Shown: positions 6,922 through 31,708 of the stretch, piece after piece | Layout of the letters: the number at the start of each line of letters is the position of its first letter | Numbering within the stretch: the stretch's first letter is position 1 | Source of the DNA: Bradymonadales bacterium | GTDB taxonomy: Bacteria; Bdellovibrionota; UBA2394 | Length of the DNA stretch: 32,153 bases | Direction: 5' to 3' | Assembly (NCBI GenBank): GCA_007693605.1 | Contig: REDG01000037.1 | Span: 1-32,153 of the forward strand | Notes under the pieces: generated by a model | Seen by the model: only the letters and a program-made list of their open reading frames with translations | Databases searched by the model: none | What the model was told of the DNA's origin: nothing | Made by a program: the position numbers and the translations under genes

Positions 6922-7336
6922 GAGCGCGGATGGGGGAATTAGGCCGAGCCCCTTAGAGGGCGAGCCAAAGAGACCAGTGGCGTCTAGCAATTCCGCTGGA
7001 GAGGAGTTGCGGGATGGAGTTAGAGTTTACCGAGATTCTTGTTTAGAGGGTTTCGGTTGTGAGCGCGGATGGGGGAATTAGGCCGAGCCCCTTAGAGGGC
7101 GAGCCAAAGAGACCAGTGGCGTCTAGCAATTCCGCTGGAGAGGAGTTGCGGGATGGAGTTAGAGTTTACCGAGATTCTTGTTTAGAGGGTTTCGGTTGTG
7201 AGCGCGGATGGGGGAATTAGGCCGAGCCCCTTAGAGGGCGAGCCAAAGAGACCAGTGGCGTCTAGCAATTCCGCTGGAGAGGAGTTGCGGGACGGAGTTA
7301 GAGTTTACCGAGATTCTTGTTTAGAGTTTCGATTGC
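6922..7336 (+). repeat. Tandem repeat of 3 units (139, 139, 137 bp) directly upstream of tRNA-Leu
   Basis: Units start at 6922, 7061 and 7200 with GAGCGCGGATGGGGGAATT. Units 1 and 2 look identical. Unit 3 has a T>C change at 7293, a 2 bp deletion and two substitutions in its tail. Confidence 0.97.
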
Positions 7337-7338
7337 GA

Positions 7339-7420
7339 GCGCGGATGGCGGAATTGGTAGACGCACCAGCTTGAGGGGCTGGCGGGTAACACCATGAGAG
7401 TTCGAGTCTCTCTCCGCGCA
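7339..7420 (+). tRNA. tRNA-Leu(GAG), CCA not encoded
   Basis: Acceptor stem GCGCGGA/TCCGCGC + A, D-loop AATTGGTAGA, anticodon arm CCAGC-TTGAGGG-GCTGG, long variable arm, T-arm GAGAG-TTCGAGT-CTCTC. Confidence 0.96.
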
Positions 7421-7541: not shown

Positions 7542-7597
7542 TTCTGATTGAACTTCTTTTTCCCTTTACTGTGTACTTGCTGGGAGTGGCGATAGGG

Positions 7598-7680
7598 GGC
7601 TCTACACCATTAAAGCCACTTGGGGTCGGGAGACGAAAGTGCCAGACTAGATGCGGCGGCTCTACACCATTAAGTGGGGC
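7598..7680 (+). repeat. Short REP-like direct repeat GGCTCTACACCATTAA x2, 60 bp apart
   Basis: Copies at 7598-7613 and 7658-7673. Reverse-complement relatives lie at 31477-31526. Confidence 0.75.
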
Positions 7681-12771: not shown

Positions 12772-14146
12772 GACTCAGTCTACTCAGGGCTTCTTAGAAT
12801 ACCGTAATCCTCTCACCACCCGATATGCAAGCACTGCCATGAGCCGGATTTTTTCGGAGCATCATCGGGCGAGCCTTTGGCGAAGGCTTTGGATTGTCTT
12901 GGCCGAGGAGCAAAAGAAGCTTGGGCTAAAGATCCGTCCGGATCAGATCGCCGAAATGAAGAAGCAAGAGAGCAAGATCGACTTCGATCGGGTAAGAGCC
13001 TGGGAGCTGAAATTAAAGCATGACGTCATGAGTCATGTGAAAGCCTTTGGCGAGGCCACCCCAAAGGCAGAGGCCATCATTCACCTGGGGGCCACCTCGG
13101 CCTTTGTCACAGACAACGCTGATGTTTTGATCATTCGAGAGGCTTCTGAGCTGGTTCATCAAAAACTCTGTGTGGCCCTCGCAGAGCTTAGAACTCTGAT
13201 TGAGAAGTGGAAGTCGGTGACGGCCTCTGGCTTCACTCATTTTCAGCCGGCGCAACCGGTGACGATGGGAAAGCGGCTCTCAGTTTGGGCTCAAGATTTG
13301 TGTTGGGATATCGAAGAGATTGAGTTTTGTTTAAGTCGCCTGAGGCCTCTCGGCTGTAAGGGGGCCACCGGCACTCAAGCCTCTTTTCTGACTCTTTTTG
13401 AGGGCGATTCCAAAAAGGTGGAAGCTCTTGATTTGGCCATTGCCAAGAGATTGGGTTTTGAGTCGGCCGTGGCTGTCAGTGGACAAACTTTGTCGAGAAA
13501 AGTGGACTCATGGTTTTTGGATGCCTTGTCCCACATGGCTTCGACCGCTTCTAAGTTGAGTTATGATTTTCGTCTTCTTCAACACACCGGAGAGCTCAAG
13601 GAGCCTTTCGGAAAGGCGCAGGTCGGCAGTTCAGCGATGGCCTACAAGCGAAATCCCATTTTGGCCGAACGACTGAGTTCGCTCGCTCGTTTCTTGATGA
13701 CTCTTTCGACCAATGGCGTTTGGACTCACGGAGTACAATGGTTGGAGCGGTCTTTAGATGACTCTGCTAACCGGCGCATTGTTTTGGCGGAAGCCTTTTT
13801 GGCGGCAGACGCGATGGCGGAGCTTTTGATTCGACTCTTCAAAAAGCCAGAAATCGATCGAAAGAGAATCCAAGAAAATCTTAAAAAATACGAGGCTGAT
13901 TTTGCGTCTGAAGCTTGGATGATGGAGCAGAGTTTGAAGGGGGAGTCTCGACAGAAAGCTCACGAGAAAGTTCGAGCCGCAAAGTTTTCTGGGAAGCTTA
14001 CTTCAAGCAAGCGATCAAAGGCTTTTGGCTCTGGTCTTGCCGCCAGACAGGTGGACTTGTTTTTGAAGCAAGAGCTCAATCCCTTTTTGAAACAACGACA
14101 AAAGCAGTTGAAAAAGAAAATGCCCTCTTCTGCCGCCGCCCTTTGA
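12770..14146 (+). CDS. purB: Adenylosuccinate lyase
   Basis: YRNPLTTRYAS, HDVMSH, IHLGATS, THFQPAQ and the fumarate-lyase signature GSSAMAYKRNP. Confidence 0.95.
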   Translation: MTQSTQGFLEYRNPLTTRYASTAMSRIFSEHHRASLWRRLWIVLAEEQKKLGLKIRPDQIAEMKKQESKIDFDRVRAWELKLKHDVMSHVKAFGEATPKAEAIIHLGATSAFVTDNADVLIIREASELVHQKLCVALAELRTLIEKWKSVTASGFTHFQPAQPVTMGKRLSVWAQDLCWDIEEIEFCLSRLRPLGCKGATGTQASFLTLFEGDSKKVEALDLAIAKRLGFESAVAVSGQTLSRKVDSWFLDALSHMASTASKLSYDFRLLQHTGELKEPFGKAQVGSSAMAYKRNPILAERLSSLARFLMTLSTNGVWTHGVQWLERSLDDSANRRIVLAEAFLAADAMAELLIRLFKKPEIDRKRIQENLKKYEADFASEAWMMEQSLKGESRQKAHEKVRAAKFSGKLTSSKRSKAFGSGLAARQVDLFLKQELNPFLKQRQKQLKKKMPSSAAAL

Positions 14147-14409
14147 GAAAAGCAGCGACGAAGCCGCCACTGCAACGCGGGCAAGGAGCGTTGCAGCCAT
14201 CCGCAAACCAAGTCGACCGAAGGTCGAGCTAAAACGAAGGGCAGGTGGGCCTCTAGCGCTTGATGGGCCCTTAGCGCCAGCTCCCAATAGTTGAGGGGTC
14301 GGATTGAGAGTGGTGTATACAACCAGACCAGGAATCTCCCTTAGGTCTTCTTTTGGTCTTATTCACTCTCTCTCCGACCCCTCCTTACCCCCTAGGAAAA
14401 CTTTATCGG

Positions 14410-29378: not shown

Positions 29379-29702
29379 ATGAAAGCGAGTCGTCGCACTT
29401 TTTTGACTTGGCTTGGATTGCTTCCGGCGGGTTTTCTCCTTTTTTCGAGAAAGTATCCAGTAGAGGCTGCTGGTCCCCTCAAGCTGGATGATCCAACGGC
29501 GCAAGCCTTATGCTATCGCTTGAAGACTTCACAGGTCGACAAGTCTGACCCTCGGTGTTCTCGTTTTGAGCCGAGCCAGAACTGCGCAAACTGTAAGCTG
29601 TATTTGGCGGCACCCACGGCGCCTCAAGGCCCATGCCAGATCTTTCAGAACAAGATCGTTCCTGCAGAGGCTTGGTGCAATGCTTGGGTGCCTAGGGACT
29701 AG
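29379..29702 (+). CDS. High-potential iron-sulfur protein (HiPIP), Tat-exported
   Basis: Twin-arginine SRRTFL, DPTAQALxY, and QNCANCKLY...GPCQIF...AWCNAW supplying four 4Fe-4S cysteines. Confidence 0.9.
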   Translation: MKASRRTFLTWLGLLPAGFLLFSRKYPVEAAGPLKLDDPTAQALCYRLKTSQVDKSDPRCSRFEPSQNCANCKLYLAAPTAPQGPCQIFQNKIVPAEAWCNAWVPRD

Positions 29703-30789
29703 GGGCTGCGTTTTGGTTTCTTCGAGCCTGAGAGTGCTTGATTAGTCTTTGAATGGCATCCGCGCGAGAGCTTAGTTTGCCAGACCGCTCTGTCAGGTCA
29801 GAAAAGAATTCATACCAGCTGTACAAGACGGCAGCCTGGTGATGGTTAGAATTCGTCAAGCGAATATTATAGAAGCCGTTGATGGGGCGCCCACTTAAAA
29901 AGTCTCTTCGTTGGTAGAAGTGGTAAGTGACTCTCGGCGTCTCATTGACATCAAAAAATTGAGTCATCGGAATCACAAAGGGTTGCTGAATGGCATCTCC
30001 CAAAATGATCCAATCCAGATCGCGTCCCGTTTCTTCAATCAGTCTTCGCCGAAAGTTTCGGAGCTGGTGGGCGCCGTGACTGCCGCCCATCCCGACCAAC
30101 ATGGTCCTATGAAAGTTGGCTCCCTCAAAGCCACCAAAGAGGCTTGAAATGTCATCGAGAGCAGCTTGGGGAGAGACCGAGTGTCGAAAGCTCAATTTGC
30201 CAAGAAGAGGGTCATTTTCGTAGATCTCAAAATTTCTTCTTCCTGTGGTGAGTGTGGGTGCAGTTGTTGATGTGGAAGAGTGTCGAGTGAAACTAAAAGC
30301 TGAACCGTCCTCTAGTTTCCACTGGCTCAGGGCTGCTCGTTTGTCGCCGATTGGAATGTCTCCAAGGTGCAGAGTATTTGAGACTCTCAATTGATTAAAG
30401 TCATTTGGCATAAACTCAATAATGAAGATTCGTTCGTAGTTTCCGGCCTTCATGCTTCGGTCTACTCGTTCAATCAATTGCGGCCTGTGATTTTGAATAT
30501 AAGATCGAATATCGGTGGATTGCTTGTAGTTTGAAGTTCCCAGGTCTGGCCTGAAACCCAAAGAGCTGCAGCCGTTCATGGCACAACTAGCGGCCAGGAG
30601 GCTAAGACTGCAGAGTGTCTTGGGAAGTGAGGCCCGGGCCTCAAGTTCGCTCTCAGGTAGAATCACAAGAAACAGGATGCAGAGGGGAATGTGGCGGAGT
30701 AGTCGCCAAGCTCGGTCGAGTGTCCCTCCAAAACGACTAGAGACCGCCTGCGCAGAGAAGGACCTAGATCCTATCCAAAACGCTGACAT
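29692..30789 (-). CDS. Putative exported alpha/beta-hydrolase-like protein, start uncertain
   Basis: GxSxG-like elbow GGSHG after a beta-strand, WIILGDA, FYQRRD and a late His pair (NHH). Hydrophobic, lipobox-like segments near the N-terminus. Confidence 0.55.
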   Translation of the reverse strand: MSAFWIGSRSFSAQAVSSRFGGTLDRAWRLLRHIPLCILFLVILPESELEARASLPKTLCSLSLLAASCAMNGCSSLGFRPDLGTSNYKQSTDIRSYIQNHRPQLIERVDRSMKAGNYERIFIIEFMPNDFNQLRVSNTLHLGDIPIGDKRAALSQWKLEDGSAFSFTRHSSTSTTAPTLTTGRRNFEIYENDPLLGKLSFRHSVSPQAALDDISSLFGGFEGANFHRTMLVGMGGSHGAHQLRNFRRRLIEETGRDLDWIILGDAIQQPFVIPMTQFFDVNETPRVTYHFYQRRDFLSGRPINGFYNIRLTNSNHHQAAVLYSWYEFFSDLTERSGKLSSRADAIQRLIKHSQARRNQNAAPSP

Positions 30790-30944
30790 ACCAAAACCCC
30801 CACAACTCGGATTTAGGCGATCTTTTTTGCAGAGACAAGACTTGAGTGAAGAGGCCTATGCCCATGGACCCAAAAATGTCGGATCGCCTATGCAGGGAAA
30901 GGCAGAGGCTCTAGAAAAGTGGAGGAGTTTCCGTGGCTTATCGC

Positions 30945-30960
30945 TGGCACTCTTCTTGCG
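30945..30960 (+). promoter_or_regulatory. Sigma54 (-24/-12) promoter
   Basis: TGGCAC-TCTTC-TTGCG matches TGGCAC-N5-TTGC, 13 bp before ATG 30974. Confidence 0.75.
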
Positions 30961-30973
30961 GTCCTTTAAGCGC

Positions 30974-31462
30974 ATGAAACAGATTCGTTCAAGACTTCAA
31001 GCCTTCACCCTCTTCGCTCTCCTTCTCGTGGGGGTAATCGGTTGTGGGAGTGCTGAAAATTTTGGCCTTGTTGGTGACCCGACTGGGGCTCCTCAAGGGA
31101 GTCTTGTTGACATTTCACCTGTGATCCCTCCCGGAGAGGAAGAGTCGGAGTCTGGTGGAGAAGAAGGTTCTCTGCCTAAGCCGGTTCCGATGCCAGAAGT
31201 GGGAGACGGATATCTGATTACCTGCCCAAGTCCCAAGGGAGAGGGCTCAGCCTTTCAAGAGATTCTTCAGATTTCTGACGGGAAAGTCGCCGTGCTGGAT
31301 GCAAAGTTTGTTGAAGCTCCTCAGAATGCAATGGGTTCTGGAGCCATCGGGCAAAGTAATGTGGGGCCCAGCGCAGTCATCAGTTACGACGACGCCGTCA
31401 TCGGAGGCCAGGACTTTCAGACTCTTGCCAACAGCTTTCTCTGTCGAACAACTTACTATTAA
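30974..31462 (+). CDS. Hypothetical lipoprotein (162 aa)
   Basis: MKQIRSR + hydrophobic stretch + lipobox VIGC, an acidic/Pro linker, and a small C-terminal domain with two cysteines. Confidence 0.75.
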   Translation: MKQIRSRLQAFTLFALLLVGVIGCGSAENFGLVGDPTGAPQGSLVDISPVIPPGEEESESGGEEGSLPKPVPMPEVGDGYLITCPSPKGEGSAFQEILQISDGKVAVLDAKFVEAPQNAMGSGAIGQSNVGPSAVISYDDAVIGGQDFQTLANSFLCRTTYY

Positions 31463-31476
31463 AGTTCAGTCTTATC

Positions 31477-31526
31477 TGGTGTAGAGCCGCCAGCCCCCAC
31501 TTAATGGTGTAGTGCCTGTAGAGCCC
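31477..31526 (-). repeat. Cluster of REP-like motif pieces downstream of tRNA-Ser
   Basis: TGGTGTAGAGCCGCC, CCCACTTAATGGTGTAG and TGTAGAGCCC are reverse complements of the 7598-7680 motif. Confidence 0.7.
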
Positions 31527-31638
31527 ATTTGGCGGAGGAGGTGAGATTCAATGTCAACCGGAGGTTGAAGGGGATAAGGACACGAGTTCGTGAGTTCGTT
31601 CGAGACGACGACGCCATTTGGCGGAGGAGGTGAGATTC
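31525..31638 (-). repeat. 25 bp direct duplication of the tRNA-Ser 3' end (89 bp period)
   Basis: CCATTTGGCGGAGGAGGTGAGATTC at 31525-31549 and 31614-31638. Confidence 0.92.
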
Positions 31639-31708
31639 GAACTCACGAAGGGGTTCCCCCCTTGCCGGTTTTCAAGACCGGTGCCTTCAACCACTCGGCC
31701 ACTCCTCC
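31619..31708 (-). tRNA. tRNA-Ser(TGA), CCA encoded
   Basis: Minus strand GGAGGAGTGGCCGAGTGGTTGAAGGCA-CCGGT-CTTGAAA-ACCGG-long variable arm-GTGAGTTCGAATCTCAC-CTCCTCC-GCCA. Confidence 0.97.

Follow-up and report, generated by a model that had tools for sequence, protein, structure and literature searches.

Directly 3' of a tRNA-Ser(TGA) gene in the window (the whole 32,153-nucleotide stretch of Bradymonadales bacterium DNA that was analysed) lies an 89-bp segment holding a second copy of the 3' end of the gene, a short hairpin, and an inverted copy of part of the T-arm. The question raised by this locus is what kind of element produces such a unit, and whether it is confined to this gene. The unit has a single copy in the source genome (G000), which is 2.19 Mb in 79 contigs and 90% complete. 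The parts of the unit are listed here; G005 and G011 are relatives that belong to two other genera.

31619..31708, minus strand: intact tRNA-Ser(TGA), the target gene (ARAGORN; Rfam RF00005).
31525..31613, no strand assigned: the T-loop unit in full, 89 bp, equal to a single period of the direct repeat (sequence comparison).
31525..31549, minus strand: copy of tRNA-Ser nucleotides 71-90 plus 5 nucleotides of downstream flank (a 25-bp direct repeat of 31614-31638), with its break in the T-loop.
31550..31580, plus strand: non-tRNA insert of 31 nucleotides in place of tRNA nucleotides 66-70 (5 nucleotides of T-stem/T-loop), made up of a hairpin and a purine-rich linker (sequence; alignment with the G005 and G011 units).
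31554..31568, plus strand: 6-bp hairpin TCAACC-GGA-GGTTGA, ending CC-GGA-GG.
31581..31585, minus strand: T-arm fragment from the 5' side, in sense (tRNA nucleotides 61-65), beyond the insert; it forms a fold-back with the antisense arm over 31581-31592.
31587..31598, plus strand: antisense copy of tRNA nucleotides 60-71 that spans the 5 nucleotides absent from the unit's sense copy; a candidate guide, with a 19-nucleotide exact homologue in G005.
31599..31618, no strand assigned: 20-nucleotide spacer from the antisense arm to the tRNA 3' end; the 5 flank bases that are repeated belong to it (sequence).

Read along the tRNA strand, the order is a 20-nucleotide spacer, the antisense copy of nucleotides 60-71, a short turn, the sense copy of nucleotides 61-65, the 31-nucleotide insert, nucleotides 71-90, and five flank bases. 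The insert sits where nucleotides 66-70 would be. The unit is a partial copy of the tRNA with an insert in the T-loop, preceded by the unbroken arm in antisense. It adjoins the tRNA 3' end directly, contains no gene, and has 64 bp between its two direct repeats.

The original prediction had described the 25-bp direct repeat (31525-31549 and 31614-31638, spacing 89), the exact 12-nucleotide inverted pair (31587-31598 and 31638-31649), and the hairpin at 31554-31568, and all three are present as described. It had also described a 37-nucleotide insert. An insert is there, but only 31 nucleotides (31550-31580) are non-tRNA sequence, while five (31581-31585) are the T-arm piece that folds back. A 9-nucleotide match to the D-loop, GGTTGAAGG, noted within the hairpin, does exist, but its length is no more than chance would give (at least 9 nucleotides match in 76 of 930 wrong pairings), and it is missing from the G005 and G011 homologues. 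It was rejected as a second antisense element.

Folded alone, the 89-bp unit is about as stable as its shuffles, with z values of -0.16 and -1.06 as DNA and -0.05 and -1.30 as RNA. The better-kept G005 homologue folds beyond shuffles as DNA (z of -2.3 and -2.5). The Ser copy looks eroded, with a 12-nucleotide arm against 19 nucleotides in G005, and may have lost the capacity for further movement. A contig from a second assembly, made from run X1, covers the whole unit with 0 differences, and this assembly, whose run may be the source sample, is not independent. Run X1 contained no empty site or joint at the unit, and tRNA-Ser reads in the RNA runs X3 and X4 came only from other organisms.

Two features adjoin the unit. 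A short repeat at window positions 31495-31521 abuts its 3' copy; the same repeat is found at 7595-7613 and 7658-7679 and 3' of several tRNA genes of the source genome, and starts with the complement of the conserved 3' side of the D-stem. Two open reading frames beside the unit (29692-30789, minus strand, and 30578-31462, plus strand) overlap by approximately 210 bases on opposite strands, have no Pfam or NCBIfam match, and are given with their start calls as predicted.

The original prediction also held that one layout recurs at tRNA loops, and this was borne out. Related units lie upstream of tRNA genes, with the break in the D-loop, or downstream, with the break in the T-loop, and each arm is matched to its own tRNA. 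The tRNA-Leu(GAG) gene of the window carries three of the upstream type.

7339..7420, plus strand: intact tRNA-Leu(GAG), the target of the D-loop mirror units.
6924..7338, plus strand: three tandem D-loop units (139, 139, and 137 bp; starts at 6924, 7063, and 7202), each with a copy of tRNA nucleotides 1-17, a hairpin insert, an antisense D-arm, and a spacer.
7257..7274, minus strand: antisense copy of tRNA-Leu nucleotides 10-26, with one mismatch, in the unit nearest the gene; further copies are at 6979-6996 and 7118-7135.

Upstream D-loop units of the source genome are found at Leu(GAG), Pro, Ile, Phe, Leu(CAG), Ala(TGC), and Arg(TCT), and also, in a more eroded state, at Asn and Arg(ACG). 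They are composed of tRNA nucleotides 1 to about 18, a hairpin, a purine linker, often a piece of nucleotides 21-29, an antisense copy of about nucleotides 10-27, and a spacer, and occur in one to three tandem copies. A second T-loop unit of the source genome belongs to tRNA-His and is displaced by 1.6 kb by an IS110 element. This IS110 (L388, G000 C64:40014-41760) is inserted in an ERIC-like repeat and separates tRNA-His from its T-loop unit. More copies of the His unit are found at C64:44765-44806 and at the end of C43.

Several other repeats of the source genome were recorded. A second class of downstream unit, 142-215 bp long (C18, C46, C53, C61, C75, and C42), has a body common to different tRNAs and a copy running from the T-loop to the 3' end; it has no clear antisense arm, and similar ones are found in G011. 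Window positions 14100-14290 hold a dispersed repeat of approximately 190 bp with terminal inverted repeats of about 26 bp, an internal CC-GRA-GG hairpin, and 31 matches in the genome. It is sometimes tandem, and one copy lies directly upstream of tRNA-Met on C76. The Ser insert was considered as a homologue of this 31-copy repeat and rejected; only the CC-GRA-GG hairpin is common to both, and the insert is absent from the 25 best hits of the profile. A second tRNA-Ser(TGA) upstream region (L028, G000 C56:781-978; 93% over 198 bp) continues into tRNA nucleotides 1-41, is broken at the anticodon loop, and is followed by other DNA. This 5' half is either an island junction or a strain variant.

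The presence of the Ser unit in relatives is patchy. The tRNA-Ser(TGA) loci of 12 relatives contain a homologous insert and 3' copy in two (G005 and G011) and none in ten; the flanks of these ten are not homologous to the source locus. The G005 unit has a 19-nucleotide exact arm, and the G011 variant has no clear arm. The Ser inserts of the three genera align, with the hairpin kept and two of its six pairs changed on both sides. With three sequences, and 66 of 500 shuffles scoring as high, these two-sided changes are suggestive only. Both homologues are as gene-less as the source unit. T-loop units are also found at Cys (G005 and G010) and Trp (G011). A CC-NNN-GG hairpin is present in 10 of the 21 D-loop units of the family (0.05 in shuffled sequence).

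The match between arm and tRNA was assessed as the longest antisense match within 160 nucleotides, for every tRNA against every flank, with tRNA genes masked. One ARAGORN call that does not look like a tRNA (Glu CTC) was left out, and the relatives were represented by 30 loci each, out of 38, 40, and 38 matches. In G000, antisense matches of at least 12 nucleotides occur in 9 of 31 own pairings and 8 of 930 wrong pairings, and none of 20000 permutations scored as high. The corresponding values are 4/32 and 4/992 in G005, 9/31 and 17/930 in G011, and 2/29 and 1/812 in G010. The wrong-pairing matches mostly involve tRNAs that share the same arm. For the tRNA-Ser flank, no other tRNA of G000 gives a match longer than 9 nucleotides. 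Antisense matches of a tRNA to its own flank are thus more frequent than chance would give.

The arms also cover the position of the break. Among the 21 D-loop units of the family, collected with no motif filter, tRNA nucleotides 16-18 are covered in 21 and nucleotides 15-23 in 20, and the arms include loop bases that are absent from the unit's own tRNA copy. Between genomes the arms are near-exact while the hairpins and spacers diverge. Where the unit's own tRNA copy is mutated (the Leu GAG and Ala TGC units), the arm follows the intact tRNA. Arm mismatches favour sense-strand wobble by 8 to 2, a bias compatible with RNA as well as DNA. In 29 of 78 loci the duplicated stretch starts 4 or more bases before tRNA +1, the outcome expected of an event at the DNA level.

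Units of this build are not confined to the family. A D-loop pattern scan of one genome per species covered 120 loci out of an estimated 350, and 55 of these 120 contain a D-loop unit of approximately 60-140 bp, mostly 87-123 bp. The records are named Gastranaerophilales, Saccharibacteria, Peribacteria, Oscillospiraceae, Cyclobacteriaceae, Roseivirga, Limnohabitans, Bdellovibrionales, and Heliobacteriaceae; one further unit is on a Methanobacteriaceae contig of doubtful origin. The other scanned loci are mostly chance matches or different repeats. A scan of metagenome and viral sequences added 14 units in 80 loci. No gene was found inside a unit at any of the 55 or 14 loci, so coding versions were discarded. 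Across loci the units form tandem arrays of one to four.

The viral contigs gave 0 D-loop pattern matches and 1 chance match. They also gave 33 T-arm pattern matches among which no complete unit was recognised; L541 resembles one. A strict T-arm pattern, which misses the tRNA-Ser unit itself, matched 5 of 301 genomes across the phylum, and two of these matches are true units. Among the best 10 of 162 plasmid records, only tRNA matches were found.

The combined set has 93 distinct units, of which 83 with an arm of at least 8 nucleotides were kept; many are kin, and for the non-family set the pattern itself forced part of the arm. The first hairpin loop of 81 D-loop inserts is a GNA triloop in 29, its complement in 0, and UUCG in 0. 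GNA triloops are very stable in DNA. The word TTGA[ACT]A is present in the spacers of 32 of the 83 D-loop units, many of which are kin, compared to 4.6 in shuffled sequence, and mostly lies 18-23 nucleotides upstream of tRNA +1. This is too near +1 for a simple promoter.

The insert can be followed outside tRNA genes in the Cytophagales. Nine D-loop units of Cytophagales type, at Thr and Gly genes and including one betaproteobacterial MAG, have one insert in common, with 9 of 28 pairs covarying. Of 101 genomes of the family searched for this insert, 31 contain it, with up to 12 copies among the matches listed. It lies mostly away from tRNAs (a tRNA is present in 5 of 30 loci). Of 96 copies in 90 loci, five are beside a called tRNA, and these consist of one D-loop unit with the insert in sense and four T-loop units with it in antisense. 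The mirror relation put forward for the two unit types therefore holds for this one insert, but not for the E. coli repeats described below or the G005 Cys unit, which have GNA loops on the sense strand.

Elsewhere, an antisense match of at least 7 nucleotides accompanies 7 of 91 copies, compared to 2.1% of mismatched pairs, and six of these seven lie at tRNA-end copies missed by ARAGORN. At L442, L487, L488, and L501, which come from at least two genomes, CRISPR-like arrays contain the insert at several positions, together with a shared linker and a duplicated half of the array repeat. We read these arrays as CRISPR. The target is duplicated in these copies and no antisense arm is present. 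Since copies away from tRNAs have no fold-back, the insert appears mobile in its own right and the arm specific to tRNA sites; movement at ordinary sites would then need no guide. A terminator-like hairpin lies between the tRNA and the unit at five Cytophagales T-loop loci and at E. coli lysQ, lysV, and serX.

As a check, the original prediction named a search for Y1 transposases, integrases, or reverse transcriptases that co-occur with the pattern, and no such enzyme tracks it. Among 78 neighbouring proteins, chosen from the 98 listed, one is a Y1 transposase, none is GIY-YIG, and no family is shared. G000 has one Y1 gene, one IS110, and five tyrosine recombinase matches; no integrase lies beside the Ser unit. 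It gave no match to mini GIY-YIG, reverse transcriptase, or DUF559 with a local profile of low sensitivity that also missed UvrC, and mini GIY-YIG was found neither in G000 nor in 13 relatives. No Y1 gene was found in G005 or in three of five other unit-bearing genomes. Thirteen of the 31 tRNAs of G000 are within 600 nucleotides of a contig end, and because assemblies often break at tRNA arrays, the absence of an enzyme is weak evidence.

In the Cytophagales, mini GIY-YIG is present in 13 of 18 element-positive genomes and 46 of 61 overall, and Y1 in 15 of 18 and 51 of 61. Neither tracks the element. Of 30 Cytophagales loci with a mini GIY-YIG gene, 21 show it linked to a tRNA, and the Cytophagales insert occurs within one such module (G304). 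Mini GIY-YIG, Y1, DUF559, reverse transcriptase, and IS110 were each rejected as a resident driver because their presence is inconsistent.

Three observations concern these enzymes in their own right. At L374, L378-L381, and L389-L418, mini GIY-YIG genes form tandem arrays together with tRNA copies in which a hairpin replaces the anticodon loop. A 29-bp repeat present in dozens of copies (window 7622-7650) is inverted around the sole Y1 gene of the source genome (G000 C78:26348-27161) and is TIRYT/RAYT-like. At L094:1798-2334, a RAYT-type gene lies between tRNA-Phe and a degenerate 3'-end copy, and two D-loop units are found upstream. The gene comes with a palindrome of its own, is the sole such case, and was rejected as a driver of the units.

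Repeats that lie downstream of a tRNA gene and finish with a duplicate of its 3' end are already known from E. coli as tRNA-linked repeats (TLRs), named RtT at tyrT/tyrV, lys, arg, serX, and rrA/B/F (PMC8144298). They have been known since 1978 and, in the sections of this source that were covered, no function or origin is established for the family. A survey of 28 E. coli K-12 genes in eight stretches identified a TLR-type repeat at 12, and all 12 contain a CC-GNA-GG hairpin. Five (tyrT, tyrV, lysQ, lysV, and serX) have the inner build of the Ser unit, with an antisense T-arm, a fold-back into a sense T-arm, an insert, and a 3' copy. The antisense T-arm is an exact 13 nucleotides at lysQ and lysV and matches 17 of 20 at tyrT, tyrV, and serX; the other 7 of the 12 retain at most 8 antisense nucleotides. 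Preference for the own tRNA is modest in E. coli (17 vs 16, 15 vs 15, and 17 vs 15) because the T-arms are alike. Most of the lysQ unit, which PGAP labels 'RtT sRNA', is held by 3243 of 5426 E. coli genomes.

These observations bear on what the unit is. An RNA-level host device would be co-transcribed with the tRNA, the 3'-end copy acting as a processing signal and the arm setting pre-tRNA folding or making a decoy small RNA. We consider this unlikely, though several observations favour it. The E. coli TLRs are transcribed and processed, those of rrA/B/F bind Hfq and CsrA (PMC8144298, in the part covered), the lysQ unit bears a small-RNA label, the hairpins covary, and the wobble bias falls on the sense strand. 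Set against these are the terminator-like hairpins that precede several T-loop units, the purine-rich loop on the strand opposite the tRNA in the Ser unit and its G005 and G011 homologues, the absence of UUCG among 81 loops, and the patchy presence of units, including that of lysQ. A strain without all 22 TLRs is listed as built (PMC8144298 supplement, as far as covered), and the Cytophagales insert is a dispersed repeat. A similarly low probability is given to a by-product of repair, where a hairpin MITE enters a tRNA gene, only template-switch rescues survive, and the fold-back is a relic with no later role. The movement of the insert elsewhere without a guide, the eroded arms of the Ser copy and of seven E. 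coli TLRs, and the failure of any enzyme to track the units would all agree with it. It does not account for the absence of fold-backs at ordinary and CRISPR-like sites, the near-exact arms between diverged hairpins and spacers, or the arms that match the intact tRNA where the unit's own copy is mutated.

A plain attL/attR scar, left by an integrative element that entered the T-loop and has mostly been deleted since, is very improbable. A direct repeat from T-loop to 3' end does correspond to a known integrase sublocation (PMC8371274, in the part covered), and G000 has both tyrosine recombinase matches and an island-like break in the 5' half of the second tRNA-Ser (C56). Such a scar would leave unexplained the antisense arm, the fold-back, the hairpin of three genera, the D-loop mirror units, and the tandem arrays, and the Ser unit has no integrase beside it. 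The own-tRNA pairing statistics and the alignment of the insert across three genera largely refute it. An assembly or amplification fold-back artefact has a negligible probability. Some metagenome contigs (L300, L318, L320, L321, L329, L330, and L336) do contain perfect palindromes whose centre is a tRNA anticodon loop. These palindromes are probably amplification or assembly fold-backs, but they have no inserts and reach into the flanks. The Ser unit is unchanged in the second assembly, its diverged homologues are found in other genera, and the same build is present in the finished E. coli K-12 genome.

The reading we prefer, and of which we are about half convinced, is that the 89-bp unit is a tRNA-linked repeat and likely a non-autonomous single-strand DNA element. 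Its antisense arm would be a guide or splint carried by the element itself, and the enzyme would be provided in trans. The tRNA gene would become single-stranded at a replication fork or transcription bubble, and an HUH-like or Ssn-like enzyme, a nuclease or transposase that binds the hairpin, might nick at the base of the CC-GNA-GG stem. The arm would pair over the intact loop and so hold donor and target aligned. Joining of the strands and repair synthesis would then insert the unit and duplicate some 15-25 bp of tRNA end, in many cases with a few bases past the mature end. With its end duplicated, the gene would stay intact and offer a fresh target. Arrays may form by repeated insertion or by unequal crossing-over between direct repeats. 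Precedents are found in IS200/IS605 and REP elements, whose cleavage sites are picked by pairing with a 4-nucleotide DNA guide (PMC8266576, in the part covered), and in SsnA, whose cut falls on only one strand, a few bases 5' of the hairpin (PMC11893778, likewise).

A broader proposal is put forward only tentatively. The units may represent a class of gene-less DNA elements of bacteria, and perhaps archaea, that carry a re-programmable 12-20-nucleotide antisense DNA guide and home to tRNA D- and T-loops while rebuilding the gene. They would be moved by an undiscovered single-strand recombinase, and the E. coli TLRs would be their resident relics.

The build common to several TLRs and to the units of multiple phyla opens the long-standing question of the TLRs to experiment in E. 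coli K-12. If the arm is a guide, the units would belong to an insertion system that uses long guides on single strands, and its enzyme would be a candidate programmable tool. If the arm is an RNA switch, it would represent a widespread and overlooked control of tRNA supply.

Several known systems resemble the units in part. The bridge RNA of IS110 is non-coding and contains both sense and antisense matches to its target. Unlike IS110, the tRNA units have no recombinase in or adjoining them, and IS110 is present in one of five unit-bearing genomes. We know of no long target duplication in IS200/IS605 or REP systems, whereas the tRNA units have a 15-25-bp duplication and an antisense arm of 12-20 nucleotides. 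The likeness to IS200/IS605 and REP/RAYT (TnpA-REP) systems, as far as described in the parts of PMC8266576 and PMC3733652 covered, lies in small non-autonomous hairpin DNA, tandem arrays, and a DNA guide near the hairpin. The Ser unit has no GTAG tag at the foot of its hairpin and is single-copy, and the Y1 gene of the source genome is flanked by another repeat.

The Ssn GIY-YIG enzymes and their NTS/SRM repeats (PMC11893778, in the part covered) are strand-specific hairpin systems whose cut 5' of the hairpin would fit the unit geometry. They differ in that the SRM motif is present in 0 of 83 units and absent from the Ser unit, and in that GIY-linked tRNA fragments are sense-only. Integrative elements with tyrosine integrases and a T-loop sublocation (PMC8371274, likewise) also break a tRNA loop and restore the gene with a duplicated end. 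In contrast, the tRNA units are about 100 bp, have neither integrase nor cargo, contain an antisense arm, occur in D-loop/5'-end versions, and can be tandem.

The closest relatives are the TLRs, which are gene-less, lie directly 3' of a tRNA gene, and end in a copy of its 3' end, as the Ser unit does. They follow a tRNA or rRNA gene and are defined by an 18-19-bp copy of that end (PMC8144298, in the part covered); the Ser unit adjoins its tRNA and ends with 20 nucleotides of tRNA and five flank bases, and agrees with this definition. The TLRs are 90-180 bp long with a copy of 18-20 nucleotides and are often tandem. The Ser unit is shorter and has one hairpin instead of three, with the flanking hairpins absent; it contains the CC-GNA-GG motif with the GNA loop on the opposite strand. 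It has no match to the Rfam RtT family at the gathering score or at E up to 1. Units of the Ser type further differ in having upstream D-loop mirror versions and in occurring in many phyla. In the sections of PMC8144298 covered, the antisense arm of the TLRs is not mentioned (the word 'inverted' is absent), and the freely accessible literature, which leaves the subscription papers and with them the primary TLR papers of 1978 and 1999 outside its scope, gave no account of antisense arms in tRNA-linked repeats. The original prediction of an undescribed system consequently holds only in part. The downstream repeats themselves are the known TLRs. Four features were not found described in the literature covered, to which the primary TLR papers do not belong: an antisense arm that bridges the loop break, mirror units at the D-loop, occurrence in many phyla, and an insert that is itself a dispersed repeat.
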